A stretch of 64,000 nucleotides of DNA. Origin: a bacterium (lineage in GTDB: Bacteria > Myxococcota_A > UBA9160 > UBA6930). This document shows, piece after piece, positions 8,778 to 36,885 of the stretch (within the stretch, counting starts at the first letter, position 1; every line of letters starts with the position of its first letter). The notes beneath the pieces are model-generated. The model searched no databases. It was not told the DNA's origin and saw only the letters and a program-made list of their open reading frames with translations. The stretch spans positions 366 to 64,365 of the forward strand of contig JAAELW010000079.1 of assembly GCA_024226235.1 (NCBI GenBank). Reading direction: 5' to 3'. A program made the position numbers and the translations under genes.

Positions 8778-10457
8778 CTAGCCGGCCGGAGCGACCATCT
8801 TCGCATAGCCCGCGATGAACGGTGACAGACTCACGTCGTCGACCTCGACGTTGATGATCGACGGCTTCCCGTTGGCGGCGGCGCGGCGGATCGCCGGCAG
8901 GATTTCATCCGGATCCGTCACCCGTTCACCATGGCCATCCCACATGGCGGTCATCTTCTCGTAGGCGCGCATATGTTGCAGTTCGGTATTGCACTGCCCC
9001 TTGCCGGAGATCTCTGTGGGCCGGATGTACTTCTCTGCCAGGCGGATCATCCCCCAGCCCGAGTCGTTGGAGATGACGCAGACTACGGGGATGCCCAGCC
9101 TCGCCATGGTATCCATCTCCATCGGATAGAAACCGAAGCTCCCATCGCCCGTGTACCACAGCACCGGCTTCCGGTTCGCGGCCCAGGCTCCGATCACCAG
9201 GCCAGGGCCCGTGCCGATCGTACCATTGGCTCCCGTCGCATGGATCTGCCCCGGGCGTGCCGCCGTCGACGCCATCCCCATCCACACACTGGCCTCGCCG
9301 CCGTCGATGACGAGATCCCAGTCCCGCGCGTCTTGCTCCAGGAATCTGGCCACCTCCCCCGCGCAGCGGGCCGGATGGACGGGCACACTCGCGTCGCGAA
9401 ACGGCTCGGGCAGGCTGGCCGCTCCGCGACTCTTGTCCGCCCCCGTCCAGGGGTCGCCTGAATTCGGCTCGCACTTGGCTTTGACCGATTCCAGGAGCTG
9501 AGCAGCAATCGGACCCGAACCTCCGACGATTCCCAGGTCTGCGCGAACGTTGAAGCCGATCTGCCTCCGATCGGTGTGTACCTGAATGACCTTCGCGCCG
9601 TCGGGAATCAACCGGCCCGATGCCAGTCTGAAATCGAACCTGCAGCTCATGGCCAGCACGACATCGGCGCCCGCCATGGAGTTGGTCTTCAAGAGTGGAT
9701 TGGCCAATTCGTCGCCGAACAATCCACGGCAGACGTTTCCCGCGATACCCACCGGCATCTTCAGATGCTTCGACAGCTCTGCGATAGCCCCCGCATGCTC
9801 GCCCATCGACCACCGGGCTCCATCGTCGATGATCATCGCCGGACGTTTCGCATTCGCCAGCAGATCGGCCGCCTCCTCGATCCGCTGCGTTTCTCCCTGG
9901 GGAATCGCTATGCGATCGTTGCTTGCCGGGAATCGGACGCTCTTCTCTTCCACCTCGGCAAACACGAGATCCGTGGGCACCTCCAGGTAGACCGGTCCCG
10001 GCGTCGAATCCATCGCATGACGAAAGGCCATGGACACGTATTCGGGAATGCGCTCGGTGCTGGTGATCTTCTTGGCCCACTTGCAGCACGATTCCATCAG
10101 GGTCAGGGTCGACATGTCCTGCAGATCACCCGCATCGCGCTTGCTCATCGCCACGGCCCCGCCGATCTGCAGCAGCGGAATGCTCATGGACTCCGCTTCC
10201 ATCATCCCGGCCGGCGTATTGGCGACACCCGGCCCCGCAGTCGTCACCACCACGGCCGGCTTTCCCGAGGCGCGCGTGTAGGCGATGCAGGCATACACGG
10301 CGGCACATTCATGGCGCGTATCGATCAGCTCGATGCCCGCTTCCCGCATCCCGTAGAAGATCGGCATGATATGTCCGCCGGTCAGGACGAATGCCTTCTC
10401 CACACCCTCATTGGCCAGGGCCTTCCCAAACAACGCTCCGCCGTCGATTGCACTCAT
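8778..10457 (-). CDS. Thiamine-diphosphate enzyme of the acetolactate synthase / oxalyl-CoA decarboxylase / 2-hydroxyacyl-CoA lyase superfamily
   Basis: N-terminal GALFGKALANEGVEKAFVLTGGHIMPIFYG (Pyr domain). C-terminal GTIGTGPGLVIGAW...YTGDGSFGFYPMEMDT..ISNDSGWG (ThDP motif GDGS...N). ATG at 10457 is preceded by GGAGGG. The track start 10526 adds 23 unlikely residues. Confidence 0.85.
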   Translation of the reverse strand: MSAIDGGALFGKALANEGVEKAFVLTGGHIMPIFYGMREAGIELIDTRHECAAVYACIAYTRASGKPAVVVTTAGPGVANTPAGMMEAESMSIPLLQIGGAVAMSKRDAGDLQDMSTLTLMESCCKWAKKITSTERIPEYVSMAFRHAMDSTPGPVYLEVPTDLVFAEVEEKSVRFPASNDRIAIPQGETQRIEEAADLLANAKRPAMIIDDGARWSMGEHAGAIAELSKHLKMPVGIAGNVCRGLFGDELANPLLKTNSMAGADVVLAMSCRFDFRLASGRLIPDGAKVIQVHTDRRQIGFNVRADLGIVGGSGPIAAQLLESVKAKCEPNSGDPWTGADKSRGAASLPEPFRDASVPVHPARCAGEVARFLEQDARDWDLVIDGGEASVWMGMASTAARPGQIHATGANGTIGTGPGLVIGAWAANRKPVLWYTGDGSFGFYPMEMDTMARLGIPVVCVISNDSGWGMIRLAEKYIRPTEISGKGQCNTELQHMRAYEKMTAMWDGHGERVTDPDEILPAIRRAAANGKPSIINVEVDDVSLSPFIAGYAKMVAPAG

Positions 10458-10616
10458 CTCGAATCCCTCCAGGCCGACCGGGTCTTCCGCCGTCCATTTG
10501 CGCTGGAGCGTAGCCGCGATGCCCATCCGATTCGAATTGCGGCGACCGTGCCCTTGTGGAGGGCCTGCGGTCGGCGGGGCATCATGTCTCCCCCGTGTCC
10601 TACCGAAGAGAGACGG

Positions 10617-11369
10617 ATGGCAGGACCTGGTGAACTGGGGATCGCGGCGTTCATCCTGGCCAGCCTGGTCGTGGGCAGCCGACTGATCCTGCTGGCGCGA
10701 CGCACCCGATGTCTACCCGAGTTGGCCCTGGGTGTCGGGCTCTTCACGCTCGGCGGAGTCGACTACCTGCTCAACATGGCTGCGCGGTCCGAAGCGCTTC
10801 TGCCGGACGCCGGGCGTGCCCTCGCCATGATCGCCGCCGTCCACTGTGGAGCCATTGGCATCATCGCAATCGCCGTCTTCACGACTCGGGTCTTCCACCC
10901 CGGTAGTCGAATCGCCGCAGCACTGGTCGGCGCCGCGGGGCTGGCGCTCATCGCTTGCGGAATCGCTCAGGGTCTGACGACCGGCTATCTGGTGGTGGCC
11001 ACCCATGAAGACCCGGCTCTGTTCATTCGAGTCTTCAACCTGATCCAGGCAGCCATCCTGGCGTGGACTGCGGTCGATGCATCCCGCTACGGACGCAAAC
11101 TCGGGCGTCGTGTCAGCCTGGGACTGGAGGATCCGGTGGTATCGGATCGCATCCGTCTGTGGAGCCGGGCGGCGATGATCGCCAGCGGCATCTATGTCAT
11201 CTATGCCGCCGGCGAAGCGCTGGGCGGGGACCTGCTTGCCTCGTCAATCTGGAACCCCGTCCTCGCAGGGCTCGGCTTCAGTTCGGCGACCTGCCTGTGG
11301 CTGGCGTTCTTCCCTCCGCTCGCATATGGACGCTGGATCCGCGAGCGCTCTGCCCGAGCGACGGACTAG
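10617..11369 (+). CDS. Integral membrane protein, function unknown (250 aa)
   Basis: Only the 3' third of track ORF 9576..11369 is plausible; the rest is antisense to the ThDP gene. ATG at 10617 opens ~7 hydrophobic helices (GIAAFILASLVVGSRLILL, GVGLFTLGGVDYLL and others). Confidence 0.6.
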   Translation: MAGPGELGIAAFILASLVVGSRLILLARRTRCLPELALGVGLFTLGGVDYLLNMAARSEALLPDAGRALAMIAAVHCGAIGIIAIAVFTTRVFHPGSRIAAALVGAAGLALIACGIAQGLTTGYLVVATHEDPALFIRVFNLIQAAILAWTAVDASRYGRKLGRRVSLGLEDPVVSDRIRLWSRAAMIASGIYVIYAAGEALGGDLLASSIWNPVLAGLGFSSATCLWLAFFPPLAYGRWIRERSARATD

Positions 11370-11569
11370 CCGCTCGACCCGGGCGCCCACGATTCCGAGG
11401 GTACGGTGAACCTCGGCAGCCCTTGCGTCGGTGTTCGAACCCCAGGACTCCGTTGCCTCGATGTCCTTCTCCGCCACAAAGCGGATGCTGGATTCGCCTG
11501 CCTCGGTGCGGTGGAGGCGAAGCGATGTAGAGTTGGGGGGGCCCGGTTCACCGGCTGGAGGAGACGTGC

Positions 11570-12295
11570 ATGACACAGCAGGAAGAGATTCGCCTGCCGG
11601 TCGCCGGCGGCCGGGACATTCTCGCCCATCTCGCGCTCCCGGAGGGCTCGCAGGGACCGGTTCCGGGCGTGCTGATTCTGCACGAGATCCTGGGATTGAA
11701 CGACGACATCCGTCGGATCGCTGGACGGTTCGCCGAGGCGGGCTACGCCGCCCTGGCACCCGACCTCTTCGAAGGACGTGGCCCCAAACCTGTGTGCATC
11801 GTGCGCATCGCGGCCAATATCGCGAAGGGAGAGGGTCCTGCGGTGGATGACATGTTCGCCGCGCGCAGCTGGCTGGCGGAACATCCCCAGATCGACGGCG
11901 AGCGCCTCGCGGTTGCGGGGTTTTGCATGGGAGGTGGCTTTGCTCTGCTGCTCGGCAGCATCGCGGATTTTCGAGTGGCCTCCCCTCACTACGGCGACGT
12001 GAAACGCGATCCGGAGTCGTACCGCGACATCTGCCCGGTCGTTGGTGGGTACGGCGGACGGGACATGGTCTTCGCCCGCAAGGGCCACCTGCTCAAGTCA
12101 CACCTGGAAGCTCTCGGTGTGCCACACGACGTCAAGATCTACGACGAAGCGGGCCATAGCTACATGAGTCAACACGCCCCTTGGATGATGGCCGTGGCAC
12201 CTTTCACGCCGCTGCGCGCACGCTACGACGAGGCGGCTGCGGAGGATAGCTGGCGGCGTATCCTGACCTTCTTCGACGCGCACCTCAATTCATGA
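11570..12295 (+). CDS. Dienelactone hydrolase family alpha/beta hydrolase
   Basis: PGVLILHEILGLNDDIRRIAGRFAEAGYAALAPDLF plus nucleophile-elbow-like GFCMGG. SD GGAGGAG lies upstream of the ATG. Confidence 0.8.
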   Translation: MTQQEEIRLPVAGGRDILAHLALPEGSQGPVPGVLILHEILGLNDDIRRIAGRFAEAGYAALAPDLFEGRGPKPVCIVRIAANIAKGEGPAVDDMFAARSWLAEHPQIDGERLAVAGFCMGGGFALLLGSIADFRVASPHYGDVKRDPESYRDICPVVGGYGGRDMVFARKGHLLKSHLEALGVPHDVKIYDEAGHSYMSQHAPWMMAVAPFTPLRARYDEAAAEDSWRRILTFFDAHLNS

Positions 12296-12428
12296 AGGCG
12301 CAGAACCTGATTCGATGCCTGTCACCGAATAGATGATCGCCCCGTCGAGCACGGACGGAGCATGCGCAAGGCTCGCAACTAGTTCCCTGGGAATACCTGC
12401 CGGGTTCACCGGCCGCTGGAGGAATCAG

Positions 12429-13286
12429 ATGAAGAAGCACGAACTCAACGAATCGTTTCGCTGGGAGGATCACCGGGGTCCCTTCCGCCTGATCGATTCC
12501 GATCAGGCCCGGCAATTCGACGAACAGGGTTTCCTGGTATTCGAGAACGTCTTCGACGCGGGTGTGATCGATGCCCTCACCAGGGAACTCGACCCCATCG
12601 AGCGCGAGCTCGAGGATGTGGTTCGCGAACACCTCGGCGGAAAGATGTTCATCGTCCGCGCGGGAGAGATCACCTTCACGCCACATGCTGTGACCCGGTC
12701 ACCAAGAGCCAGGGGGCTTACGCAGTGCCAGTTCTTCCGCGATCTGGTGCACGATCTGCTCGGCAACGATGTACGCCTCTACTGGGACCAGACGGTCTAC
12801 AAGAAGCCGGGTACGGTCGATGACTTCCCGTGGCATCAGGACAACGGATACAACTTCGTCGAGCCGCAGCAGTATCTGACCTGCTGGGTGGCATTGACGG
12901 ATGCCGACGAGGAGAACGGCTGCCCGGTGGTACTTCCCGGATTCCATCGAGATGGCACTTGGGACCACGAGAAGACCGACCTTGGCTTCGACTGTGGCGT
13001 GGACGAGAGCGGATCCGAAACCATCGCCGCTCCCGTCAAGGCGGGCAGCGTGGTGGTCTTCTCATCGCTCACGCCACACAAGACGGGGCCGAACCTGACC
13101 ACGGACCGGCCCCGCAAGGCCTACGTGGTTCAGTTTGCTCCGGACGGTGCGAGTACCATCAGCCAAGAGGGCGGCGACATCGTGCGCACCCTCTGCAACG
13201 CCCCCGAGCGGCAGTATCCCGTCCTGGTGGGCGGTGCGGCTCCGCCCGATGATGGCGCAGCGGAATCGGGCGAGTCGCCCGGCTAG
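12429..13286 (+). CDS. Phytanoyl-CoA dioxygenase (PhyH) family Fe(II)/2-oxoglutarate oxygenase
   Basis: QARQFDEQGFLVFENVF opening, WHQDNGY (HxD facial-triad region) and a later TPHKTGPN (His). ATG at 12429 is preceded by GGAGG. Confidence 0.8.
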   Translation: MKKHELNESFRWEDHRGPFRLIDSDQARQFDEQGFLVFENVFDAGVIDALTRELDPIERELEDVVREHLGGKMFIVRAGEITFTPHAVTRSPRARGLTQCQFFRDLVHDLLGNDVRLYWDQTVYKKPGTVDDFPWHQDNGYNFVEPQQYLTCWVALTDADEENGCPVVLPGFHRDGTWDHEKTDLGFDCGVDESGSETIAAPVKAGSVVVFSSLTPHKTGPNLTTDRPRKAYVVQFAPDGASTISQEGGDIVRTLCNAPERQYPVLVGGAAPPDDGAAESGESPG

Positions 13287-13811
13287 TCAGAAGGGCTTCA
13301 CGATCGCGATGAAGAACATCAGGGGGATCAAGACGATGACCACGGGCTCGCTGATCCGGAGAAAGGTCCAATGCTGGCCCATCTTGCGCTCGTGGAGTTC
13401 CATGTCTCCCGATATCCGGATCCGCCTCTTGTTGCCCCCCAGATGTGAGAGGTGGATGTCCACGATTTCCATGGGCACGATCAGGAAGATGCCGATCCAG
13501 AGCATCGCCGTGATGTAGCTCCAGCGCGTCAGGTCGAATCCACCCGCGATCAGCATCAGAATCGCCGTCAGGACGAGAATCGCGAAGGCCACGTGCTCGA
13601 GCATTGCCCCTCGATCGAAGGCCTCCATCATGTGGTTTCGGACCTCCCGAGCCTTCGGGTCGTCGGGCTTTCGTTGTGCACGACGCAGAGCCGGCTTCAG
13701 ATACCATACCCAGGCCACCGACGTGCTGAAGGACCAGATCGCGGCGACCAGGACGTGCACCGACTTGATGACGGCGTAGTGGGGCGAGAGCCATACTCTC
13801 AGCTCATCCAT
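13287..13811 (-). CDS. Small integral membrane protein, function unknown
   Basis: 174 aa with 4 hydrophobic helices. Its stop abuts the PhyH stop (convergent). Confidence 0.55.
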   Translation of the reverse strand: MDELRVWLSPHYAVIKSVHVLVAAIWSFSTSVAWVWYLKPALRRAQRKPDDPKAREVRNHMMEAFDRGAMLEHVAFAILVLTAILMLIAGGFDLTRWSYITAMLWIGIFLIVPMEIVDIHLSHLGGNKRRIRISGDMELHERKMGQHWTFLRISEPVVIVLIPLMFFIAIVKPF

Positions 13812-13821: not shown

Positions 13822-14487
13822 TCACGAATCCGAATCGTCGCTGGATGCGATTTCGTCGACCGCGGCCATCACATCCATCGAACCCGTCCCGTCTTCGGGC
13901 GCGGGAACCTCGGTGATCGGATCGTCGACATCATCGAACTCGAGTCGGAGAGCGCGGCACATCGTGGCGTGCAGGTCGTAGGTGCATGTGATGTAGGTAA
14001 GTTCGAGGATCTCGATCTCACTCAGCTCTTTGCGCAGGGCGTCGAAGACGGGATCCGGGACCCGGCCACCCTCGAGCACGAGGCAATCCGTGTAGGCGAG
14101 AACTGCGCGCTCGATCGGCGAGAAGCACGTGGCGACCGACCAGGCCGGGACGGCCGCGATCTGCTCTTCGCTGAGCCCCGCATCGCGACCCGCCTTGCAA
14201 TGCTGGGAGAACACGAAACGACTTCCCCGCGCATAGCCGGCGCGCGTTTGCCCCAGCTCGCGCAGCCTCGCCGAGAGCACGCGTTTGGGGCTGCGATAGA
14301 AGCCGAAACCCGCTACCGCGTGGTCGAAACAATCCGGCACACCGGCAAAGACGGTCCACCAATTGCCCGGTGTTCCCGTGGCCGTCCCGGGCGATTCGAC
14401 CGGATCACGATCTCCGAACAGCATTTCGTAGATCGTCTTCGCACCCGCGTGGGCCTCGTGCTTGGGGACTTCTCGTAGTCGGGGCAT
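13822..14487 (-). CDS. Carboxymuconolactone decarboxylase (AhpD-like) family protein with acidic C-terminal tail
   Basis: Pattern ..RELGQTRAGYARGSRFVFSQHCKAGRDAGLSEEQIAAV..ERAVLAYTD.. is typical of the CMD family. Start taken at the internal ATG 14487 (MPRLREVP). Confidence 0.7.
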   Translation of the reverse strand: MPRLREVPKHEAHAGAKTIYEMLFGDRDPVESPGTATGTPGNWWTVFAGVPDCFDHAVAGFGFYRSPKRVLSARLRELGQTRAGYARGSRFVFSQHCKAGRDAGLSEEQIAAVPAWSVATCFSPIERAVLAYTDCLVLEGGRVPDPVFDALRKELSEIEILELTYITCTYDLHATMCRALRLEFDDVDDPITEVPAPEDGTGSMDVMAAVDEIASSDDSDS

Positions 14488-14641
14488 TGCGGACTCCCAT
14501 CCTGATTCGAGCTTCGCGGACATCCGGATCTTCCCGTCGCCCATGCGAAATGGTGCGACCGACGATAGCCCGTCGACAGATCTGGCGATTGTCGCAAGGG
14601 AGCCCCGAGGCCAGAGCACCCACCTTGCTGAACCGCTGGCC

Positions 14642-15727
14642 TCAGGCCAGTGTCGCCTCCCGCGGGTCGGCGAAGGTCAAGCCGCGTTCCTGGAATTCGG
14701 CCCGTTTCTCCTGAGCACTGGAATGCCGCGTGTGAAGGTTCTCCACAGTCTTGGCAGCCCTGTCGACGCGCCAACCCTGGGCCAGGTAGCCATCCACGTG
14801 ACGCTCCGGCACCAATCCGACCCGCAGCAGATTCGGAAGTACGGTGTCGGAAATCGGATCCGCGAGACCGTCCAGATCCAGGTGTTGCTGATCGGAGATC
14901 TCGTCCAGAAACTTCGGCATGAAGCTCGCGAAGTCGACATCCGTCGTCGCCAGAGCTCCGAGCATTGAGGTGAAGCCCGGCTTGCCGGCTCGGCCCCCAA
15001 TGCGCACGATGGCATCGTAGGCCCAATCCTCGAGGCGCTCCCGAACACCGGGGGCCAGGGCGGGTATGCGATCTTGAAGTGTGATCACGCCATAGGCGAC
15101 GTGGCGCGACTCGTCATCGCGAACGTTGCCGATGAAGCTCTTGAAGACAGGCTCCACACCGAGTTCGCTACCGAGCCGAAAGAACGACAGCGCCACGCTC
15201 TCGATGATGACCTGCATCCCCACGCACTTCGCCTCCCAGTCGCGCTCGGCCAGGAGTTCTTCCAGGATGATCTTCAGATCCGGATCGATGGGAAAGCGGC
15301 CCCCCTGGCACTCGAGGTAGCGGGCAAAGACCTCGACGTGGCGGGCTTCATCCACCACCTGGACCGAGGCCGCGAGCTTCGCATTGACATCGGGCACGAC
15401 GTTGACCAGCTGCCCACATGTCATCATGGCCGCTTGCTCGCCGTGAAGGACCTGGGAGACCATGAAGAGATGAAGCACACGAAAGAGCTGCGTCTGCTGT
15501 TCAGAGGGGAGTTCTTGTACACAGGCAAGGCGTGACATGAAATCCGATCGCCGGTCGATGACATCGACGCCCGGCTCGAATTTCCCCCAATCCACATCGA
15601 GATCTGCATCCCACTGATGTCTCTTGGCCTGCGCATAGAGGGTTTGCAGCTTGTCATCTCCAAAATCGTAGTCGTCTTTGAAGTGGCTCTGCAGTCGCGC
15701 CTCCGTGCTGAAGCGAGATAGATCCAT
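14642..15727 (-). CDS. Ferritin-like diiron-carboxylate oxidase/oxygenase
   Basis: Four-helix ligand pattern is visible: LHGEQAA (E), DEARHVEVF (ExxH), IIESVAL (E), DESRHVAYG (ExxH). Confidence 0.7.
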   Translation of the reverse strand: MDLSRFSTEARLQSHFKDDYDFGDDKLQTLYAQAKRHQWDADLDVDWGKFEPGVDVIDRRSDFMSRLACVQELPSEQQTQLFRVLHLFMVSQVLHGEQAAMMTCGQLVNVVPDVNAKLAASVQVVDEARHVEVFARYLECQGGRFPIDPDLKIILEELLAERDWEAKCVGMQVIIESVALSFFRLGSELGVEPVFKSFIGNVRDDESRHVAYGVITLQDRIPALAPGVRERLEDWAYDAIVRIGGRAGKPGFTSMLGALATTDVDFASFMPKFLDEISDQQHLDLDGLADPISDTVLPNLLRVGLVPERHVDGYLAQGWRVDRAAKTVENLHTRHSSAQEKRAEFQERGLTFADPREATLA

Positions 15728-15745
15728 TGCGGCTTCTCCTGAATT

Positions 15746-15777
15746 CGTTCCGTTGAACTCGCGTTTCGTTGAACTCG
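15746..15777 (-). promoter_or_regulatory. Abutting 16-nt tandem direct repeat just upstream of the diiron gene start
   Basis: + strand CGTTCCGTTGAACTCG (15746-15761) then CGTTTCGTTGAACTCG (15762-15777), one mismatch. It lies 19-50 nt upstream of the ATG at 15727. Confidence 0.5.
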
Positions 15778-17324: not shown

Positions 17325-17427
17325 TTCGACCCTCTTTCAGGATGACCTGAAGCCGTTCGTTTGTGCATTCGGACGGCTCGGCGACGCTGACAGCGAACAC
17401 CCGCAGAACACGGAAGGCCCAGCTCCA

Positions 17428-28635: not shown

Positions 28636-28659
28636 AGCACCCTTGACGATCGGTCGCAG

Positions 28660-30297
28660 CTACCCCTCGACCAGACCTCGTCTGCTGGCCGCATACGCCT
28701 CGGCCCATTGATAGTCGGGCTTCCCGCTTGGCGCCCGTTGGATCTCGTCGACCACATGCAATTCCCGGGGAACCTTGTATCCGGCGATCTGCGTGCGGAT
28801 CTCCTTCTGTATTTCGTCGAGGGAGATCTTCCTGTCATTCCGCACTGCAACCACTGCAGTCACCTTGCGACCCCAACGTTCATCGGGTGTGCCCACCACC
28901 AGGCAATCGAGAATGTCGGGATGGGCCTTCAACGCCTGCTCGACCTCTTCCGGAAATATCTTCTCACCGCCGGAGTTGATGCAGTTGGAACCGCGACCGA
29001 ATACGGTAATCGACTCATCCTCTTCCAGCTGTGCAGCATCACCGGTCAACAACCAGGCCTTGCCTTCCACTTGAATGACCGTTCTGGCCGTCTTCTCGGG
29101 ATCGCCGTAGTAACCGACAGGGAGATAGCCTGAACGCGCGAAGATCCCCATCTCGCCGGGTTGGGCCCGACGTGCGGGTCGACCCTCTTCTTCGACGATG
29201 ACATCCATGAATTCGCTGCGTGCCACATTGCCGAGACCCGCCGAGGTCTTCCTCTGTCCGCTGTCCATTCCCATCTGGCCCGATTCCGAAGAACCGAAGG
29301 CATTGGTGATGACAACATTGGGGAAGATCCGCTTGAACTCCTGTTGCTTGGAATCAGAGAAGACCGCACCCCCCGAACCGACGCTCAATACACAGCCGAG
29401 CTCCCAGCGATCGGGATTCGCCTTCAAGGTATCCAACAAGGGAACCGCCATGGCATCACCGACGATGGATATGGTGTTGATCTTTTCCTTCTCGACGAGA
29501 TCCCATACCTGCTCACCCTTGATGGACCTGTTCGGGTTGAGCACGAGTTTGTTGCCCGCCAGCATCTGGATACACGCGTACCACCAGCAAGCTCCGTGCA
29601 TCAGAGGGGCCAAAGCAATGCCGGAAAGGGTCAGGCCCTCCGTGGCGCGCGAGACGATGTCCTCGGGCTCGTGACAGGGGCCATCCGGATGAAAATGGCC
29701 ACCACCACCCATCCCAGCGAAGAACACCGATTTGTGCGGCCACATCACACCCTTGGGCATGCCGGTCGTACCACCGGTATAGAGAATGAACAGGTCGTCA
29801 TCAGCGCGCTGTTCGAAATCCCTTTGCGAGCTTCCTCCGCGGATTGCGGCTTCAAATTCTGTCGCACCGATCCCCGCCAATGCGAAGTCACTGCCGTCTT
29901 CCACTGAGATGAACAGCTTCAGGTCCGGAACCGAACCCCGTACCGCCTCGATCGCGGGAATGAATTCCCGACCGTGGATGCATGCCACCAGATCGGCATC
30001 ATCGAAGATGTAGAGAAGCTCCGCATCCACGTAGCGGTAGTTGACGTTGATCGGTACCGCACGGACCTTGAAACAGGCCAACATGCCTTCGAGGTATTCG
30101 TTGCAGTTGTACATGTAGAGACCGACGTGATCCCCAGCCTCGACGCCATGGTCTTTCAGGAAGTGCGCCAGGCGATTGGCACGTTCTTCCAACTCGCCGA
30201 AAGTGGATCGTGCCTCACCGCAGACCAGAGCCTCGCGTTCGGGCATGGCGTCCGCGACGAGTTCGAAGAGGTCGGCAATGTTGAAGGTCCTCTTCAT
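28660..30297 (-). CDS. Acyl-CoA synthetase (FadD-like)
   Basis: ILYTGGTTGMPKGVMW, FGSSESG, and C-terminal APSGKPDY. Confidence 0.9.
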   Translation of the reverse strand: MKRTFNIADLFELVADAMPEREALVCGEARSTFGELEERANRLAHFLKDHGVEAGDHVGLYMYNCNEYLEGMLACFKVRAVPINVNYRYVDAELLYIFDDADLVACIHGREFIPAIEAVRGSVPDLKLFISVEDGSDFALAGIGATEFEAAIRGGSSQRDFEQRADDDLFILYTGGTTGMPKGVMWPHKSVFFAGMGGGGHFHPDGPCHEPEDIVSRATEGLTLSGIALAPLMHGACWWYACIQMLAGNKLVLNPNRSIKGEQVWDLVEKEKINTISIVGDAMAVPLLDTLKANPDRWELGCVLSVGSGGAVFSDSKQQEFKRIFPNVVITNAFGSSESGQMGMDSGQRKTSAGLGNVARSEFMDVIVEEEGRPARRAQPGEMGIFARSGYLPVGYYGDPEKTARTVIQVEGKAWLLTGDAAQLEEDESITVFGRGSNCINSGGEKIFPEEVEQALKAHPDILDCLVVGTPDERWGRKVTAVVAVRNDRKISLDEIQKEIRTQIAGYKVPRELHVVDEIQRAPSGKPDYQWAEAYAASRRGLVEG

Positions 30298-30303
30298 GGC
30301 AGG

Positions 30304-31437
30304 CTAGATCACCCCCGTATCGCGGAATGACGCGATCTCATCGCTGCTGAAGCCCGCCTCGCCGAGCACCTCGTCGCTATGCTCTCCGAGCTTGGCCGGG
30401 CCGGCGCCGAGGTCGGCTGTCGTACGCGAGAAGCGCGGTGCGGGACGTGGTTGCCGAACACCGTCATTCACGGGAAATGCTGCCCGCGCGGCGTTGTGCG
30501 GATGCTCGTGGGCTTCGGACATGGCGAGGACCGGGGCAAAGCAGGCGTCGCTGTTCTCGAATACAGCGCACCACTGGTCCCGGGTCTTCGTCTTGAAGAT
30601 TTCCGACAGTCGCTCCTTGAGGGCCGGCCACTGGCTTTGATCCATCTGCTCGGGCAGGTCGGCACCCGCGAGACCCAGCCGCTCGACGAGGCTGGCGTAG
30701 AACTGGGGTTCGATGGAGCCGATCGACACCCACTTGCCGTCGGCGGTCTCGTATACTTCGTAGAAGTGGGCACCCGAGTCGAGCATGTTCGTACCGCGCT
30801 CCTCGCTCCACCAGCCCGCCTGGTGCGCACCGTAGATACTGGTGAGCAGAAGCGAGACGCCGTCCACCATCGCAGCGTCGACGACCTGCCCCTGACCACT
30901 GCCCTTCGTCTCGAGCAGCGCGCACACGATGCCAAAGGCCATCAGCAATCCGCCTCCCCCGAAATCTCCGACCAGGTTGAGCGGAATGGCGGGCTTCTCT
31001 CCCTTCCGGCCAATCGCGTGAAGAGCACCCGTCAGGGACACGTAGTTGATGTCGTGGCCCGCCTCCTGGGCGAGAGGACCCTCCTGTCCCCATCCCGTCA
31101 TGCGGCCGTAGACGAGACGCGGGTTGCGTTCCAGGCAAGCGTCGGGCCCGATTCCGAGCCTTTCTGTCACGCCCGGGCGGAAGCCTTCGACGAAACCATC
31201 TGCTCCTTCGACGAGACGCATGACGACATCGACGCCCGCTGGCTTCTTCAAATCGACGCAGATACAGCGCTTTCCGCGATTGACGAGATCGGCAGGTCCC
31301 GTGGGAAAGGTGCCACCCCCGGGGCGCTCGATACGGATCACATCCGCCCCCATGTCACCAAGAACCATCGCGGCAAACGGCCCGGGGCCGAGGCCGGATA
31401 TCTCGATGATTCGTGTTCCTTGCAACGGACCCATCAC
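30304..31437 (-). CDS. Alpha-methylacyl-CoA racemase-like family III CoA-transferase-fold protein
   Basis: GPLQGTRIIEISGLGPGPFAAMVLGDMGADVIRIERPG opening plus AGHDINYVSLTGALH, the racemase-type HD(I)NY block. Its stop lies 6 nt upstream of the start (30297) of the downstream ligase gene. Confidence 0.8.
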   Translation of the reverse strand: MMGPLQGTRIIEISGLGPGPFAAMVLGDMGADVIRIERPGGGTFPTGPADLVNRGKRCICVDLKKPAGVDVVMRLVEGADGFVEGFRPGVTERLGIGPDACLERNPRLVYGRMTGWGQEGPLAQEAGHDINYVSLTGALHAIGRKGEKPAIPLNLVGDFGGGGLLMAFGIVCALLETKGSGQGQVVDAAMVDGVSLLLTSIYGAHQAGWWSEERGTNMLDSGAHFYEVYETADGKWVSIGSIEPQFYASLVERLGLAGADLPEQMDQSQWPALKERLSEIFKTKTRDQWCAVFENSDACFAPVLAMSEAHEHPHNAARAAFPVNDGVRQPRPAPRFSRTTADLGAGPAKLGEHSDEVLGEAGFSSDEIASFRDTGVI

Positions 31438-31533: not shown

Positions 31534-32760
31534 CTATCCGACGCGATGCGCCTCGAAAGTCTGCGCGCCAGCGTTCTCGTCGAGCAGATGGCGGGCAATC
31601 GTGAGAATCTGGATTTCGGTCGTTCCTCCGCCCAGCTCGAGAAGCTTGGCATCGCGTACGAGGCGTTCCACCTCGTACTCGGATATGTAGCCGTAGCCCC
31701 CAAGAATGTGGATCGCTTGCTGCGTGACTCGTGAGCCCACTTCTGCAACGTATAGCTTGGCCGCACAAGCATCGATGACCGAACCGGTCTGTTGCTTTGC
31801 ATAGACGATACGACGGCTGTTGCTGATATCCACGTACATGCGTGCGAGGCGTTCCTGTACGAGTTGATAGTTCGCGATCGGCTGACCGCCCTGTTCGCGG
31901 CTCTTCGCATACTCCAGCGCAATCTCGAATGCCTTCTCCGCGAGTGCATAACTCAGCGTCGCGATACCCAGGCGTTCTCCGGCCAGAGACTTGCGGACGT
32001 GATCTCGGTCCTCGACGCCACGGCCCAGGAGGTTGTCCGCGGGCACCTCCACGTCATCGAAGAAGACTTCACCGGTGGGGGAGGTCTTCATTCCCATTTT
32101 GTGGAACGGCTTGCTGGTGGTCACACCCTTCCACTCTCTTTCCACGATGTAGGCCTGAATCGCACCCGTGTCTGCATCCTTGGCATAGACGAGGAAGACA
32201 TCTCCATATGGGGCGTTGGTGATGAAGGTCTTGGAGCCATTCAGGATGTAGGAATCACCGGTCTTCTTTGCCGTCGTCCGCATCGAACCGAAGGCATCCG
32301 ATCCGGCGCCCGGCTCCGTCAAGCACCAACAACCGATCTTCTGCCCGCGCAGCACTGACGGCACGTATTTCTTGATCTGCTCGGGCGTACCATGCTTACG
32401 GATGTTGCCAGCACAGAGCCCGACACTCACGCCCCATGAGCTGCAAAGGCCCGGATTGACGCGAGCCATCTCGATGGTGAGCTGATTTCCCGCAAAGGTG
32501 ACGATCCGTTTCGTTTCCTCGTCATCGTCCGCGGGTTCGGCCGAGCTCTCGCCGTTCTTCACACCACCGGTGCTTTCGAGCCAATCCGCATCGGGAGCCA
32601 GGCCAAGGTCGGCGATCATCTGCTCGATGAAGGGAAAGGGCAGGATCTCCTGGTTCTCGAGCTGCTCGGTCAGAGGCGCGAGTTCGTTCTCCATGTACTT
32701 GCGGAACTGATCGCGGATGCCGCGTTCCATATCTGTGAACTGAACATCGTATACGGCCAT
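31534..32760 (-). CDS. Acyl-CoA dehydrogenase
   Basis: CLTEPGAGSD and C-terminal GGYGYISEYEVERLVRDAKLLELGGGTTEIQ. ATG at 32760 is preceded by GGGAGG. Confidence 0.9.
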   Translation of the reverse strand: MAVYDVQFTDMERGIRDQFRKYMENELAPLTEQLENQEILPFPFIEQMIADLGLAPDADWLESTGGVKNGESSAEPADDDEETKRIVTFAGNQLTIEMARVNPGLCSSWGVSVGLCAGNIRKHGTPEQIKKYVPSVLRGQKIGCWCLTEPGAGSDAFGSMRTTAKKTGDSYILNGSKTFITNAPYGDVFLVYAKDADTGAIQAYIVEREWKGVTTSKPFHKMGMKTSPTGEVFFDDVEVPADNLLGRGVEDRDHVRKSLAGERLGIATLSYALAEKAFEIALEYAKSREQGGQPIANYQLVQERLARMYVDISNSRRIVYAKQQTGSVIDACAAKLYVAEVGSRVTQQAIHILGGYGYISEYEVERLVRDAKLLELGGGTTEIQILTIARHLLDENAGAQTFEAHRVG

Positions 32761-32816
32761 GTCGACCTCCCAGGCCAGCATCGCCGAGCCGCCAACCGTC
32801 GTGCAGTGCGCTCGGC

Positions 32817-33620
32817 TCAGTGTCCCTTGAAGACGGGCTTGCGCTTTTCCAGGAAGGCGCGCGGTCCCTCGACTGCGTCCTTTGATTGCAAGACCGGCAT
32901 GCCGTAGCCGGTTTCGATCCCGAAGGCCTGCTCCTCGGGCAGCATGTCGGTCTCGCGCAATGTCGCGAGAATGGCCGTCACCGCGAGGGGGCCGTTCTCG
33001 GCAATGCGCTCGGCGATCTCCCGGGCCTTGGCAACGGCCTGGCCATCGGGCACGACGTGATTGATCAAGCCCAGCTCGAAGGCCCGTGCCGCGGTGAAGT
33101 CCTCGCCCACGAGAAGGATCTCGGCCGCGACCGCATAGGGGATCTGGCGGCGCAGCCGCACGACCGAGCCTGCCATCGGAAACAGCCCGCGCTGCACTTC
33201 GGTGACTCCGAACATGGCACTCTCGCCGGCGACGCGGATGTCGGTGCCCTGCAGGATCTCGGTCCCGCCCGCGCGCGCGAAACCCTCGGCGGCCAGAATC
33301 ACCGGTTTCTTCGGTCGGTGGGTCTTGAGCCAGGCACCCATGATCAGCGGCGGCTCACCCACGGCCCGCTTCATCCAATCGTTCTCGAGCTTTCCTGCCG
33401 TGAGCTTGGAGATCTCCGAGAGATCCATCCCAGCACAGAAGGTGTCCCCCTTCCCCGTGAGAATGGCGACGCGAAGATCATCATCGGCGTCCAGCTGGAG
33501 CCAGGCGTCATAGAGACGACACATGGCCTCGCAGTTGACCGCGTTCTTCTTCTCCGGGCGGTTCAAGGTGACGGTCAGGATCGCTCCGTCCTTCTCGACA
33601 AGCACAGCGGGGGCGGACAT
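32817..33620 (-). CDS. Enoyl-CoA hydratase/isomerase (crotonase) family
   Basis: LNRPEKKNAV, FCAGMDL, AGGTEILQGTDIRVA, EGPRAFLEKRKP. Confidence 0.9.
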   Translation of the reverse strand: MSAPAVLVEKDGAILTVTLNRPEKKNAVNCEAMCRLYDAWLQLDADDDLRVAILTGKGDTFCAGMDLSEISKLTAGKLENDWMKRAVGEPPLIMGAWLKTHRPKKPVILAAEGFARAGGTEILQGTDIRVAGESAMFGVTEVQRGLFPMAGSVVRLRRQIPYAVAAEILLVGEDFTAARAFELGLINHVVPDGQAVAKAREIAERIAENGPLAVTAILATLRETDMLPEEQAFGIETGYGMPVLQSKDAVEGPRAFLEKRKPVFKGH

Positions 33621-33671: not shown

Positions 33672-34826
33672 TCAACTGAAGCTCGGGTTCGGATCCGAAC
33701 TCACGATCCACATCGCGAAGTAATTCGAGGCTCCACCGTAGGCGTGACCGAGGGCAACACGTGCGCCATCCACCTGGTAGTCGCCAGCGGTACCGCGGAC
33801 CTGGTTTGCAGCTTCGAGGCAGCGAACCATCCCCGACGCACCGATCGCGTTGGAAGAGAGAACACCGCCCGACATGTTCACCGGGAAATCACCACCGAGC
33901 TCGGTCGCACCCGAGTCGGTCATCTTCCAGCCGTCGCCCTCGTCGGCGATCAGGTGGCCTTCGAGCCACATCGGTTCGAACCAGCTGAAGGGGACATAGA
34001 GCTCGGCACAATCGATCTGGCGACGCGGATCGGTGATACCGGCCTTCTTGTACAAGGCCTTCGCACACTCCACACCCGCTGCCGGCTTCACCGGATCGCG
34101 GCCGGGGAATACCGTGAATTCGGTCCGCTTCGCATGAGCGAGCACCCAGGCGGGAGGTCGCGGCGTTCGCTTCGCACCGGCAACCGTCGTAATCACCATG
34201 GCCGCCGCACCGTCGGAGGAAGGGCACGCCTCGAAGAAGTGGAGGGGATCCCAGAGCATCGGGCTCTCCTTCACCTTCTCGATTGTAATTCCCTCCATCT
34301 GCAGATGTGCGTACGGATTCTTGAGCGCGTTCAAGCGATCCTTGACCGCGACCTTCCAGCCAATGTGCGGAGGCGCGCCACTCCTCTTGATGTACTCGCG
34401 AATCCATGGAGCGAAAGAACCGCCGGCACCGGCTCCTCCGCTACGGCCGCCACTCAGCGCCCACATGAAGTCGCCCTCGCTCTGCTTCTCGTACGCCAGG
34501 GTGAGAACCGTCTCATACATGCCGCTCTCGACAAGCGTCGCCGCGCTGATGGCGGTGGATGCGCCCACCGAGCCCGCAGTGTGGACGCGGTGAATGGGCT
34601 TGCCCACCGCATTCAGAGCATCCGCGAGCGATAGCTCGGGCATCATCACGCCCTCGAGGGCATCCGGAGCCTTGCCGATCACGACCGCATCGATGTCCGC
34701 AAAAGTCAGTTCCGCATCCTCGAGCGCGCGCAATGCAGCCTCGCGGACGAGACCATCCAGCGAGAGCGGGAGGCAACGGTCGTACTTGGTCTGCCCGAGT
34801 CCGACGACTCCACAGCGCTCGGCCAT
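33672..34826 (-). CDS. Thiolase-fold protein lacking the canonical nucleophile (Ltp-type, candidate retro-aldolase subunit)
   Basis: SCPx-like fold, but the nucleophile block reads VHTAGSVGASTAI (no Cys). The C-terminal block reads NMSGGVLSSNAIGASG (no GHP). Confidence 0.75.
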   Translation of the reverse strand: MAERCGVVGLGQTKYDRCLPLSLDGLVREAALRALEDAELTFADIDAVVIGKAPDALEGVMMPELSLADALNAVGKPIHRVHTAGSVGASTAISAATLVESGMYETVLTLAYEKQSEGDFMWALSGGRSGGAGAGGSFAPWIREYIKRSGAPPHIGWKVAVKDRLNALKNPYAHLQMEGITIEKVKESPMLWDPLHFFEACPSSDGAAAMVITTVAGAKRTPRPPAWVLAHAKRTEFTVFPGRDPVKPAAGVECAKALYKKAGITDPRRQIDCAELYVPFSWFEPMWLEGHLIADEGDGWKMTDSGATELGGDFPVNMSGGVLSSNAIGASGMVRCLEAANQVRGTAGDYQVDGARVALGHAYGGASNYFAMWIVSSDPNPSFS

Positions 34827-35887
34827 CAGGACTCTCCTTCCAGAATGCAGAGCAGGTTCTGCTGCAGTGCGGGTCCACTGGCCGCATGCCCGAGACCGCG
34901 TCCCGCTTCACCCGCGCGGATTCGGCGCGCCAGTTCGATGACTCGTGTCAGACCGGTCGCCATCACCGGATGACCACAGAGCGGCCCGCCGGAGGGGTTG
35001 ATCCTGGTGTGGTCGCCGAGGTCGAGTGCCTGGCGCAGAACGATCTCCTCGGGGCTGTAGCGAACGCAGAGCTCCGCCATATCGAGAGAGCCCGGGTCGA
35101 GACCCAGATGGCGCGCTGCAATACGCGACGATGGGGAGTCCGTCAGGTCGCGCAGGCCCAGGTGGTGGGATTCGATGCGATGGTCGATGCCGCGGATCCA
35201 AACCGGCTTCTCGCAAAGCTCGCGCGCACGGTGACCACGCGCGATGAGCATGGCCGATGCGCCATCGGAGATGGGCGGCAGGTCGTGTTTGCGGAGCGGC
35301 GAGGCATAGTACGGCTCTTCCAGCAGGTTTTCGGCGGGGATGTCCTTGGCGACCTGCGCGTATGGATTCGAAAGGGCATCGCGCCGGCTTCGCGAGACGA
35401 CCTCCGCGAAATCGCGCTCGCTGGCCTTCCCGGCCTGGAGCAAAGCGCTGGCCTGAAGTCCGGCCACGGAAACCGGATCGAGGCCGATCGGCGCATGAAC
35501 ATAGGGATCGGCCTGGAGAGGGAAGATCTCCCGCGGAGTGCCCGGCGACGATTTTCCGGAACCCGCGACCAGCGCGAGATCGATGTCCCCCATCTGGAGG
35601 CGCACGAACGCCTCGAAGAGCGCCCAGGCCCCATCCATCTCGACATGGGACTCATAGACCGGCGGCCAGGCACCAAAGCCGTCCACATTCGCGATGAAGC
35701 AGAATGGAGAGCCCGAAAGGTAGTCACTGCTGCCGGCAATCGTGAAATCGATCTGGTGCCGGTCGAGCCCGGTTTCCTCCAGAATCTGGTTCACGAGCCC
35801 CATCAACATCGACGGCTCGGTATCGGGGTAGCTTCGAACACAGGGCGTCTGCGCATAGGCGACGATCGCAATCTCTTCGGCCAACAC
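34826..35887 (-). CDS. Thiolase-fold protein lacking the N-terminal nucleophile Cys (partner subunit)
   Basis: The nucleophile region reads HVEMDGAWALFEA (no Cys). The C-terminal NPSGGPLCGHPVMATG is retained. Its stop overlaps the next gene's start by 1 nt (TGATG). Confidence 0.75.
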   Translation of the reverse strand: MLAEEIAIVAYAQTPCVRSYPDTEPSMLMGLVNQILEETGLDRHQIDFTIAGSSDYLSGSPFCFIANVDGFGAWPPVYESHVEMDGAWALFEAFVRLQMGDIDLALVAGSGKSSPGTPREIFPLQADPYVHAPIGLDPVSVAGLQASALLQAGKASERDFAEVVSRSRRDALSNPYAQVAKDIPAENLLEEPYYASPLRKHDLPPISDGASAMLIARGHRARELCEKPVWIRGIDHRIESHHLGLRDLTDSPSSRIAARHLGLDPGSLDMAELCVRYSPEEIVLRQALDLGDHTRINPSGGPLCGHPVMATGLTRVIELARRIRAGEAGRGLGHAASGPALQQNLLCILEGES

Positions 35888-36885
35888 TAGATCTGCTCCG
35901 GAAATTCTTCACGGGGAACGTCGGGCTCACCGGTGGGCTCCCAGCGCTCGATCACGTTCCCAGTGGTGAAGATCATCCAGCTGTTGTCCACGTTGTCGAC
36001 GTTGCGCTCGGCGACGGGCTTGAAAATCGCACGCAGGCGCATTCCCTCTCGGAACTCGTCCACGGGAATGTTGTAGATGTTCTGCATGGTGAGGGGTTGG
36101 TCCGAGCCGTCGAGGAAGATCGATGCGCTGACATAGGGCTCCGTCTCCGTCTGGCCCTTGTACTGGATCGGCGTGATCACCGTAAAGGAGGTGGCCGTGC
36201 CCGTGGGAGCGAGTTCCACGTCGTCAGCCTCGGTCATCAGCACGCGCGCCATTGGGTCGTAGCCCTTGCCCGGAATGGAGACACTGCCACTCACGGGGCT
36301 ACGCTGCCCAATGAACTTCCCATCGAGCAGCCCCTGCGCATAGCGAGCGCGGGACGGGTAGAGGTTCTCGTCGAACGTGAGCGAAATCAGGTGCGTGCTG
36401 ATTTCTACCTCACCCTCACCCGGCTCGATGGCCATGTCCAGCGCATCGGCTTCGGGCACGAAATAGACATCGCTGATTGCACCGGTGCGTTCCTCGCGGA
36501 ACTGCGCCTTCACCCGCATGCCGTTCGACATGGCCTCCGGGCCCGAAGCCTTGACAGCGTGGGTCATCGCGGTGTCGGCCCCGTCCAGCTTCACCTGCGC
36601 AAACGCAAAGGGTTCCCGGAAAGGATGTTTGCGCGAAGGCTCGGCAATCCATGTCCAGAACTCGACACACCCCATGGGCCCGACTTCGACGAAGTCCGGG
36701 CTCAGGGTCTCGCCCGTTTCCGGGTCGAACTCAAGCGGCGGACAGAGGACGCGACTCCCACATCGGATACCCAGGATGCGACCATCACGGAGTGCGGTCA
36801 GGAAGGGTCCGATCACGGGGCCGAGGGTCCGGGTGTAGGGATACTCGAGGGTAAAGGAGGTAGGAAATTCCGACATGGCCACCAT
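35887..36885 (-). CDS. Tandem double DUF35/OB-fold protein (degenerate zinc ribbons)
   Basis: 332 aa. The first half has RCGSRVLCPP..EFDPETGE plus an OB-like segment. The second half repeats the OB-like pattern without Cys. There is a 1-nt stop/start overlap with the downstream thiolase-fold gene. Confidence 0.65.
   Translation of the reverse strand: MVAMSEFPTSFTLEYPYTRTLGPVIGPFLTALRDGRILGIRCGSRVLCPPLEFDPETGETLSPDFVEVGPMGCVEFWTWIAEPSRKHPFREPFAFAQVKLDGADTAMTHAVKASGPEAMSNGMRVKAQFREERTGAISDVYFVPEADALDMAIEPGEGEVEISTHLISLTFDENLYPSRARYAQGLLDGKFIGQRSPVSGSVSIPGKGYDPMARVLMTEADDVELAPTGTATSFTVITPIQYKGQTETEPYVSASIFLDGSDQPLTMQNIYNIPVDEFREGMRLRAIFKPVAERNVDNVDNSWMIFTTGNVIERWEPTGEPDVPREEFPEQI

Follow-up and report, generated by a model that had tools for sequence, protein, structure and literature searches.

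A probable mosaic of acyl-CoA-catabolic transcription units around a sterol-side-chain-type gene module in an uncultured Binatia bacterium

Overview of the Locus

The window described here is the whole 64,000-nucleotide stretch of contig JAAELW010000079.1 (assembly GCA_024226235.1) that was analysed, and its subject is a 28-kb run of catabolic genes at positions 8778-36885. This run is probably a mosaic of at least four acyl-CoA-catabolic transcription units around a sterol-side-chain-type module, as opposed to a single alpha-plus-beta-oxidation island. The backbone module is homologous, by gene family and gene order, to the actinobacterial sterol side-chain gene set of the ligase/echA19/Rv3521-ltp4-ltp3 type. 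A racemase, a PhyH-family dioxygenase and an enzyme that depends on thiamine diphosphate (ThDP) are lineage-specific additions to this backbone. An initial annotation had read the run as a bacterial counterpart of the peroxisomal degradation of methyl-branched fatty acids. The machinery for the beta-oxidation of 2-methyl-branched acyl-CoA is indeed there (a racemase of the MCR/AMACR type, an SCP2 thiolase, ligases, crotonases and an acyl-CoA dehydrogenase), but a peroxisome-like alpha-oxidation island is not borne out by orthology or conservation. Actinobacterial sterol side-chain catabolism already offers bacterial loci in which MCR-type chemistry is joined with SCP2/Ltp-type enzymes.

Genes were chosen by third-position G+C and annotated with Pfam and with NCBIfam profiles at their curated cut-offs. 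The G+C content of the window is 62-67%. The closest orthologues of its ThDP enzyme are found in Candidatus Binatia metagenome-assembled genomes (MAGs), and the protein is 100% identical to protein P0121 of MAG GCA_024227775.1. Pfam annotation recovered every gene listed earlier at its position. Three AMP-ligases (Lig1, 18925-20598; Lig2, 24298-25917; Lig3, 28660-30297) and two crotonases (ECH1, 20658-21458; ECH2, 32817-33620) are present as claimed, but the range holds only one acyl-CoA dehydrogenase (ACAD; 31534-32781) where more than one had been listed; two further ACADs lie outside it, at 53443-55838. The conserved backbone turns out to lie in genes that the earlier list passed over: two Cys-less thiolase-like genes, three DUF35 units, an HMGCS-like fusion and an NMO gene.

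The Core Module

The core is encoded on the minus strand. At its upstream end lie genes for an Ltp4-like and an Ltp3-like thiolase-fold protein (33672-35887) and for a double-DUF35 protein (35887-36885), which together span 33672-36885; the double-DUF35 gene overlaps the start of the Ltp4-like gene. The Ltp3-like and Ltp4-like genes pass the NCBIfam models PRK08313 (570 vs. a cut-off of 514) and PRK07937, “lipid-transfer protein” (458 vs. 419). Neither product has the nucleophilic cysteine of a CxS motif, and the HDCF motif is replaced by YVPF and CVRY, respectively. A PDB sequence search with the double-DUF35 protein returned no match. The three proteins are predicted to form a retro-aldolase-type C-C cleaving complex.

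Downstream of these genes are the ACAD and ECH2 (31534-33620, by Pfam), followed in the core order by an NMO-family FMN oxidoreductase (25954-27078) and Lig2, which together occupy 24298-27078. The NMO protein is FabK-like (174 bits, NCBIfam) and Lig2 passes PRK07798 (579 vs. 543). The next gene (22706-24274) encodes an HMG-CoA-synthase-like (HMGCS-like) domain fused to a DUF35 zinc-ribbon/OB domain, with the zinc ribbon CTSC...CGEC. This fusion scores below the cut-off of the NCBIfam archaeal HMG-CoA synthase model (199 vs. 244 bits). Its PDB matches are 6esq_I (96 bits) and PhlA (94 bits), with the DUF35 part matching 6esq_E (55 bits). The last core gene (21498-22661) is for the SCP2-type thiolase. 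The earlier description of an intact SCPx-type enzyme holds, given its nucleophilic Cys85 (in a CAS motif), HDCF284, NASGG324 and GHP333 and its passing of PRK06157 (511 vs. 403); an exact-sequence look-up found this thiolase not on record. Lig1 and ECH1 follow at 18925-21458 on the minus strand (ECH_1, 2e-57). Lig1 is CasG-like, although it falls short of the cut-off of the NCBIfam model for the steroid-24-oyl-CoA synthetase CasG (690 vs. 750 bits).

The pairing of an SCP2-type thiolase with an HMGCS-like protein that bears a DUF35 zinc-ribbon/OB domain is also seen in the archaeal thiolase/HMG-CoA synthase/DUF35 complex and in PhlACB. Unlike in those systems, the DUF35 domain of the window is fused to the HMGCS-like protein, and the pair lies in a catabolic beta-oxidation cluster and not in mevalonate or phloroglucinol biosynthesis.

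Conservation of the Core and its Known Relatives

The synteny of the core was found with the NMO protein as probe. Two loci, L104 and L105, have the gene order of the window core (double-DUF35, Ltp4-like, Ltp3-like, crotonase, ACAD, NMO, ligase, HMGCS-DUF35 and thiolase), with a carboxyltransferase and a short-chain dehydrogenase/reductase (SDR) added after NMO. The identity of the L104 proteins to those of the window is 87% for the double-DUF35 protein, 89% for each of the Ltp4-like and Ltp3-like proteins, 95% for the crotonase, 87% for the ACAD, 75% for NMO, 85% for the ligase (Lig2), 83% for HMGCS-DUF35 and 88% for the thiolase. In both loci this core comes without PhyH, ThDP enzyme or racemase. 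A third locus (L103) has the order double-DUF35, Ltp4, Ltp3 and NMO, with the NMO gene adjacent and the Ltp and DUF35 proteins 72-80% identical to those of the window. At a fourth locus (L102), with a 79%-identical NMO, no core genes were found upstream, the contig ending about 700 bp past NMO.

The carboxyltransferase (acyl-CoA carboxylase beta-type) and SDR genes of L104/L105 (11158-13580) stand between NMO and the ligase, and nothing occupies this position in the window. Carboxylation is the other known way around beta-methyl or beta-alkyl branches.

The best annotated relatives of the Ltp4-like protein are actinobacterial, at 44-54% identity. In Tsukamurella tyrosinosolvens (L110), the order is NMO, crotonase, AMP-ligase, OB-fold protein and two thiolase-domain proteins, all 40-60% identical to their window counterparts, and this locus adjoins a P450 gene and an annotated “steroid 3-ketoacyl-CoA thiolase”. 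In M. tuberculosis, the genes run Rv3521, ltp4, ltp3 and lie near fadD19 and echA19 (PMC6429209). Ltp3 and Ltp4 are described, in a passage of PMC6273163 citing Wilbrink 2012, as aldol-lyases essential for C24-branched sterol side chains. Complexes of thiolase-fold and DUF35 proteins are established retro-aldolases of steroid side-chain catabolism (PMC12329534; PMC10398937), in which DUF35 is a scaffold for the thiolase-fold C-C cleaving enzymes (PMC12329534).

Compared with the known side-chain systems (fadD19, echA19 and Rv3521-ltp4-ltp3; Ltp2-ChsH2(DUF35); the proteobacterial Sal-Shy), the window has the same families in the same local order. After an OB-fold/DUF35 protein come two thiolase-fold proteins that lack the cysteine, and genes for a crotonase, an AMP-ligase and NMO are next to them. 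Like those systems, it has a racemase for 2-methyl branches and a protein that passes the “lipid-transfer protein” model. Unlike them, it belongs to an uncultured Binatia bacterium, with no steroid-nucleus genes nearby, and it adds the HMGCS-like/DUF35 fusion with its own SCP2 thiolase as well as an inserted block of racemase, ligase and CoA-transferase genes.

This likeness raises the alternative that the run is a true sterol or steroid (or hopanoid- or bile-acid-like) side-chain locus, i.e., the version in Binatia of the actinobacterial C24-branched genes, with other parts of the genome taking care of the polycyclic nucleus. The synteny of the Ltp3/Ltp4/DUF35, NMO, crotonase and ligase genes with the Tsukamurella locus points this way, as do the CasG-like score of Lig1, the known part of MCR in cholesterol side-chain catabolism, and the closest relative of the PhyH protein, which adjoins a KshA_C Rieske protein and a P450-ferredoxin fusion. 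On the other side, the 64 kb contain no ring-cleavage or 3-ketosteroid genes and the CasG cut-off is not reached. Ltp-type/DUF35 complexes also use non-steroid substrates (BbsAB, PhlACB, archaeal HMG-CoA synthase), and the published Binatota genome analysis stresses alkanes and methylotrophy (bioRxiv 10.1101/2020.09.14.296780). A dedicated steroid locus is an unlikely explanation of the run.

The Racemase and the Lineage-Specific Insert

A block at 27295-31437, of mixed strands, separates the ACAD from NMO in the window and is absent from this position in L104/L105. It comprises a CoA-transferase of the acetyl-CoA hydrolase/transferase family (plus strand), Lig3 (minus strand) and an alpha-methylacyl-CoA racemase (MCR; 30304-31437, minus strand). 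The latter had been noted as a racemase-type family III protein with a GHDINY block, and it can now be named a true MCR/AMACR orthologue. It matches M. tuberculosis MCR (1x74, 8rmw) with 424 bits and an E-value of 5e-126 over residues 1-348, as against at most 144 bits for family III CoA-transferases. The motifs AGHDINY (His126) and NLVGDFGGG (Asp156) are kept and are identical to those of MCR. Lig3 passes PRK07798 with 665 bits. From the inserted racemase it can be inferred that 2-methyl-branched substrates, similar to isoprenoids or sterol side chains, are handled here.

The G+C content falls to 0.594 at 28-30 kb, over Lig3, as against about 0.63 around it, and Lig3 lies below the third-position G+C filter. 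Both observations fit a more recent insertion of the MCR-Lig3-CoA-transferase block.

A metagenome scan with the racemase gave 80 loci, at up to 66% identity, the surroundings of which have almost nothing in common with those in the window. None of the 35 long metagenome loci with racemase orthologues carried PhyH, ThDP enzyme, NMO or Ltp4, a count that is uninformative on the window cluster since MCR is too widespread.

Proposed Route

From the family assignments, catalytic motifs and synteny observed, a substrate class and a reaction order can be inferred. The ligases would form the CoA ester of a carboxylic acid that is bulky or methyl-branched. The ACAD would make the 2-enoyl double bond, and a crotonase would hydrate the resulting 2-enoyl-CoA. 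The cleavage of the C-C bond could take two forms: thiolysis by the intact SCP2 thiolase, or retro-aldol cleavage by the Cys-less Ltp3/Ltp4-DUF35 complex where a beta-branch prevents oxidation of the tertiary alcohol. The racemase would turn 2R-methyl into 2S-methyl esters, which would allow propionyl-CoA-releasing cycles to proceed. Such a route would process beta-branched substrates without alpha-oxidation. The candidate substrates are acyclic isoprenoid acids and sterol- or hopanoid-type side chains.

Several points weigh against this account of the module. No KshA, KstD or Hsa genes for steroid ring degradation are found in the 64-kb window, so a steroid is no more than a candidate substrate. 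A 3-hydroxyacyl-CoA dehydrogenase of the usual type is absent from the window cluster. The motifs of the Ltp-like pair depart from the YDHF/YDCY of known aldolases: YVPF of the Ltp3-like protein keeps just the tyrosine and the Ltp4-like protein has CVRY, so aldolase activity can be ascribed to them only tentatively. The models PRK07937 and PRK08313 are taken to be those of M. tuberculosis Ltp4 and Ltp3, an assumption to which the Tsukamurella synteny adds. The SDR and carboxyltransferase of L104 have no window counterpart. Lastly, the nearest characterised relatives of the ThDP enzyme are formyl-CoA-forming lyases, and the PhyH gene is 2 kb away from it, which leaves some probability for a functional alpha-oxidation link.

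Transcriptional Layout

A long run of minus-strand genes makes up most of the 28 kb and falls into three units. The first extends from the CrtI-like gene to Lig3 (38.5 to 28.7 kb), the second from NMO to the GFO/FAD oxidoreductase genes (27.1 to 16 kb), and the third comprises an AurF-like gene, a CMD gene and unk174 (15.7 to 13.3 kb). The plus-strand CoA-transferase gene at 27295-28635 interrupts the run. A plus-strand unit, unk250-DLH-PhyH (10617-13286, PhyH last), converges on it. The ThDP gene is on the minus strand and is divergent from the unk250-DLH-PhyH unit across 159 bp. The four activities that were taken as peroxisomal (PhyH, ThDP enzyme, racemase and thiolase) are spread over at least three separate transcription units and do not form one operon.

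A luciferase-like (LLM) oxidoreductase gene (7728-8714, minus strand; Pfam Bac_luciferase, 8.6e-43) lies immediately downstream of the ThDP gene and is probably co-transcribed with it; the protein is below the cut-offs of the NCBIfam F420/FMN LLM models. In the divergent unit, the first gene encodes a 250-aa protein, unk250 (10617-11369, plus strand), which is also called in the NCBI record (L004, 5527-6279) and has no significant Pfam match. The second encodes a dienelactone-hydrolase-family esterase (DLH; 11570-12295, plus strand; Pfam DLH, 8.8e-42).

An accessory redox set lies at 13822-18888 on the minus strand and comprises, by Pfam, CMD-family, AurF-like di-iron, FAD oxidoreductase, GFO/IDH/MocA dehydrogenase and SnoaL-like proteins. 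It is outside the conserved core; the AurF-like gene found upstream of the L104 core is a different one, at 35% identity. On the other flank, a CrtI/carotenoid-isomerase-family flavoenzyme (36943-38523, minus strand; Pfam Amino_oxidase) is encoded on the strand of the core, 57 bp upstream of it. It remains below the cut-offs of the NCBIfam carotenoid isomerase and CrtI-family models, and the gene is absent at this position in L104.

The ThDP-Dependent Enzyme

Another alternative to the mosaic is an alpha-oxidation pathway. The PhyH protein would 2-hydroxylate a 3-methyl-branched acyl-CoA, and the ThDP enzyme would split the product into formyl-CoA and an aldehyde one carbon shorter. Oxidation of the aldehyde, for which the adjacent luciferase-like enzyme may be responsible, would give the 2-methyl acid, and this would enter beta-oxidation through the racemase and the SCP2 thiolase. 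The divergent arrangement of the ThDP gene and the PhyH unit favours such a link, as does the presence of a true racemase and an SCP2 thiolase within 20 kb.

The ThDP-dependent enzyme (8778-10457, minus strand; 559 aa) has all three TPP domains by Pfam. Its placement in the superfamily of acetolactate synthase (ALS), oxalyl-CoA decarboxylase (OXC) and 2-hydroxyacyl-CoA lyase (HACL) can be narrowed. By pairwise scores, fold and tree it stands on the side of HACL, OXC and benzaldehyde lyase (BAL) and not on the ALS or sulfoacetaldehyde side. The phylogeny and profile comparison suggested by the initial annotation thus did not place it in an amino-acid biosynthetic or sulfoacetaldehyde clade. Scores of phmmer against the PDB are 215-184 bits for the 2-hydroxyacyl-CoA lyases/synthases (HACL/S; ApbHACL/S best, 215), 185 for AcHACL, the actinobacterial 2-hydroxyisobutyryl-CoA lyase, 180 for BAL, 144-136 for OXC and at most 141 for ALS. 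The corresponding identities are 30% to ApbHACL/S, 30% to AcHACL, 28% to BAL, 26% to OXC and 24% to ALS.

The AlphaFold2 (AF2) model of the enzyme has a pLDDT of 83. Ranks 1-49 of its Foldseek matches are taken by HACL/S, AcHACL, OXC, BAL and BAL-derived or related carboligases (formolase, HKA synthase), with the first ALS at rank 50. A neighbour-joining tree was built from 483 ungapped columns with BsALS as outgroup and 300 bootstraps; the reference sequences of BAL, O. formigenes OXC and B. subtilis AlsS are identical to 2ag0, 2c31 and 4rjj. In this tree, the window family branches off deeply and on its own within the AcHACL/BAL/HACL-OXC group. Its sister is AcHACL, albeit weakly, in 129 of the 300 bootstraps. 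That the closest relatives by sequence and fold are HACL/S, AcHACL and OXC speaks for alpha-oxidation.

The profile scores speak against it. The enzyme reaches 218 vs. a cut-off of 600 on the HACL model NF058623, and 203 vs. 557 and 180 vs. 739 on the OXC models PRK09259 and TIGR03254. The best NCBIfam model is PRK05858, at 295 vs. 587. As judged from these profiles, the protein belongs to no characterised HACL or OXC family. Identification as an ALS or a sulfoacetaldehyde acetyltransferase can be rejected as the ALS and Xsc profiles are far under their cut-offs (TIGR00118, 223 vs. 538) and ALS forms the outgroup in the fold and tree comparisons.

The active-site residues give a mixed picture. 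The features of HACL/S used for comparison, including the acyl-CoA-binding arginines R260 and R400 of ApbHACL/S, are those of Kim et al. (PMC11271303), and those of AcHACL (E493; lid 556-590) are from Zahn et al. (PMC8760513). The catalytic glutamate is present (E50). In place of the G-[I/F]-P loop of HACL/S there is G27-G28-H29 (GGH), as in AcHACL and BAL, and the [F/Y]-[Q/E] pair is replaced by L112-Q113, which these two enzymes have as well. The GGH and LQD motifs common to the window enzyme and AcHACL would be in keeping with a lyase role, but GGH and L-Q also occur in BAL, a non-CoA enzyme. The counterpart of R260 in the alignment is K257, and 95 of 120 orthologues have R or K here. This position aligns with the ARS/TRA of all four CoA-dependent references, i.e., with an arginine for the CoA phosphate, and such a residue is shared with AcHACL and is absent in BAL and ALS. 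R400, the second CoA-binding arginine, aligns with G394/M395, and no basic residue is found there in the ThDP family. The ADP-binding arginine pair is half kept (R273; T152). The position of AcHACL E493 is Ile, with a conserved Glu475 four residues on, on the same predicted active-site helix; this glutamate counts in favour of a lyase. The C-terminus ends at residue 559 with ...DDVSLSPFIAGYAKMVAPAG and has neither the R-K-x-Q-x3-W lid motif of HACL/S nor the long lid of AcHACL. Taken together, the sequence comparisons make the enzyme a deep lineage of the lyase-group ThDP enzymes, for which CoA dependence is plausible.

The PhyH Protein

The gene at 12429-13286 (plus strand) encodes a 285-aa Fe(II)/2-oxoglutarate dioxygenase of the PhyH superfamily, of the hydroxylase type (Pfam PhyH, 2e-32). 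The facial triad of H136-x-D138 and H217 and the 2-oxoglutarate-binding R229 are invariant in 25 homologues. The family assignment made earlier is therefore sound, but the protein is not a PHYH orthologue. In the PDB it scores 62 bits with EvdO2, 44 with PHYHD1, 42 with SnoK, 34 with human PHYH (2a1x), to which it is about 21% identical, and 32 with EctD. The AF2 model (pLDDT 92.8) has Foldseek matches throughout the PhyH superfamily, with E-values of about 1e-15 alike for PHYHD1, PHYH, SnoN/K and SyrB2, and does not discriminate between them. No NCBIfam model is passed or approached.

In the clade comparison that had been suggested, the protein thus falls outside the ectoine-hydroxylase and halogenase clades, but it is outside the PHYH clade too and no closer to PHYH than to enzymes with non-CoA substrates (EvdO2, PHYHD1, SnoK), which tells against alpha-oxidation. 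A halogenase is ruled out by the Asp138 of the HxD motif, and ectoine hydroxylase by a score of 36 bits vs. a cut-off of 336. The protein is best described as an orphan of the PhyH superfamily, the substrate class of which is not readable from sequence.

PhyH is followed by a convergent gene (13287-13811, minus strand) for a hydrophobic 174-aa multi-pass membrane protein, unk174, with no Pfam match. It is kept at 94% identity in the same position beside the closest PhyH relative (L001, 4178-4702), though all other surroundings differ. Elsewhere, a Coq4-family gene adjoins PhyH orthologues in two independent lineages (L003, 11086-11814; L106, 6562-7275). Those of L106 and L107 lie near genes for a neutral ceramidase, a sphingomyelinase-like Exo_endo_phos protein, a fatty-acid desaturase and a fatty-acid hydroxylase (L106, 9801-12961). 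These neighbours hint at a lipid or sphingolipid role for the PhyH orthologues.

Co-Conservation of the Four Activities

If the four genes formed one island, they would be expected together in other genomes. PhyH, ThDP enzyme, racemase and thiolase do not stay together in relatives, an observation against the island by the initial annotation's own reckoning. An orthologous PhyH gene lies within 10 kb of the ThDP orthologue in 0 of 12 loci outside the source MAG; in one Pseudomonadales lineage, a 28%-identical PhyH paralogue lies 8 kb from it. Conversely, the ThDP enzyme is found at none of five PhyH-orthologue loci (PhyH at 63-90% identity). Around the closest PhyH relative (90% identity, L001) lie instead genes for a P450-ferredoxin fusion, for an ACAD and for a KshA-like (KshA_C) Rieske protein, and only unk174 is kept. 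PhyH paralogues are also multi-copy in these lineages (L108/L109 have three or four within 7 kb), so a chance adjacency to ThDP is plausible.

The ThDP orthologues are 66-79% identical in MAGs of Binatia, Pseudomonadales, Alphaproteobacteria, Acidobacteriota and Thermodesulfobacteriota. No conserved partner gene was found at their loci. Their neighbours vary and include EamA, glyoxalase, ROK, ADH/SDR/ADC, glycyl-radical enzyme, acyl-CoA carboxylase, OYE, hydrolase and sulfatase genes. There is a loose recurrence only, of luciferase-like and glyoxalase genes; an LLM gene is near ThDP orthologues in L009, L010, L013 and L021, with the window as a fifth context. A family III CoA-transferase gene adjoins the ThDP orthologue in L012, which may be counted for alpha-oxidation. 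The adjacency of PhyH and ThDP is specific to the lineage of the window, and the two genes are separately transcribed.

The window is like the peroxisomal PHYH-HACL1-AMACR-SCPx pathway in having an AMACR orthologue with its His/Asp pair, an SCP2-type thiolase that keeps HDCF and, nearby, a PhyH-superfamily dioxygenase and a ThDP enzyme of the lyase group. It differs from that pathway in that PhyH is no PHYH orthologue, the ThDP enzyme is outside the HACL/S-OXC clade, and the four genes are in separate units and are not co-conserved. On this evidence, the alpha-oxidation pathway is quite improbable. Its more specific form is very unlikely to be correct: here, the divergent pair ThDP-LLM and unk250-DLH-PhyH would be an acyl-CoA alpha-oxidation unit, with PhyH as the 2-hydroxylase and a new AcHACL/HACL2-related HACL lineage as the lyase, and this unit would take the carboxyl carbon off 3-methyl-branched or 2-hydroxy fatty acids and supply the adjacent racemase/SCP2-thiolase/Ltp machinery. 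Were it true, this would be a notable case, the first locus in a bacterium that brings the four peroxisomal activities together.

Flanking Genes

The flanking genes reported earlier for a WS/DGAT (48-1214), the CrtI-family flavoenzyme and the DLH esterase are all present, and the gene at 61769-63235, given as a BVMO, encodes an FMO/BVMO-like flavoprotein. Between the WS/DGAT and the catabolic genes, at 1177-5837, lie genes for a multihaem-cytochrome/TPR/HEAT protein (between 699 and 783 aa, according to which start codon is taken; the NCBI call has 699) and a TonB-dependent receptor. The stretch at 47338-53390 encodes an HpcH/HpaI (citryl/malyl-CoA-lyase-like) aldolase and, after it, an AcrB-type RND pump, a membrane-fusion protein and a TetR regulator. 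The two outlying ACADs begin a set at 53443-58341 that continues with an 842-aa protein of two tandem family III CoA-transferase domains and has TetR regulators on both sides. On the plus strand at 59059-63235, genes for a MaoC/FAS1-dehydratase-like protein, a thiolase-like protein and a stand-alone zinc-ribbon DUF35 protein precede that of the FMO/BVMO-like flavoprotein.

Such a content allows for a further explanation, namely that the co-location is incidental. In a genome rich in acyl-CoA, PhyH, ThDP and luciferase-like paralogues, any 64-kb window might look alike, with units acting on unrelated substrates. The region of 40-64 kb, with more ACADs, the double family III CoA-transferase, a thioesterase, the thiolase-like/DUF35 pair and the FMO/BVMO, agrees with this, as do the highly variable neighbourhoods of the ThDP, PhyH and MCR orthologues. 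However, the order of the 10-gene core is kept across MAGs at high identity, and the racemase is inserted within the core and not alongside it. A purely accidental grouping is highly improbable.

Biological Implications

The ThDP orphan family is the most interesting loose end of the window, being unusually well conserved across phyla and placed beside the formyl-CoA lyases, enzymes that serve synthetic one-carbon chemistry.

If the mosaic around a sterol-side-chain-type module is correct, uncultured Binatia would carry an Ltp3/Ltp4-DUF35 module for the cleavage of branched side chains, so far studied in Actinobacteria, together with a racemase. This would extend known biology and overturn none of it, and it would help to predict which environmental bacteria break down lipids with methyl branches, among them sterol side chains and isoprenoid acids.

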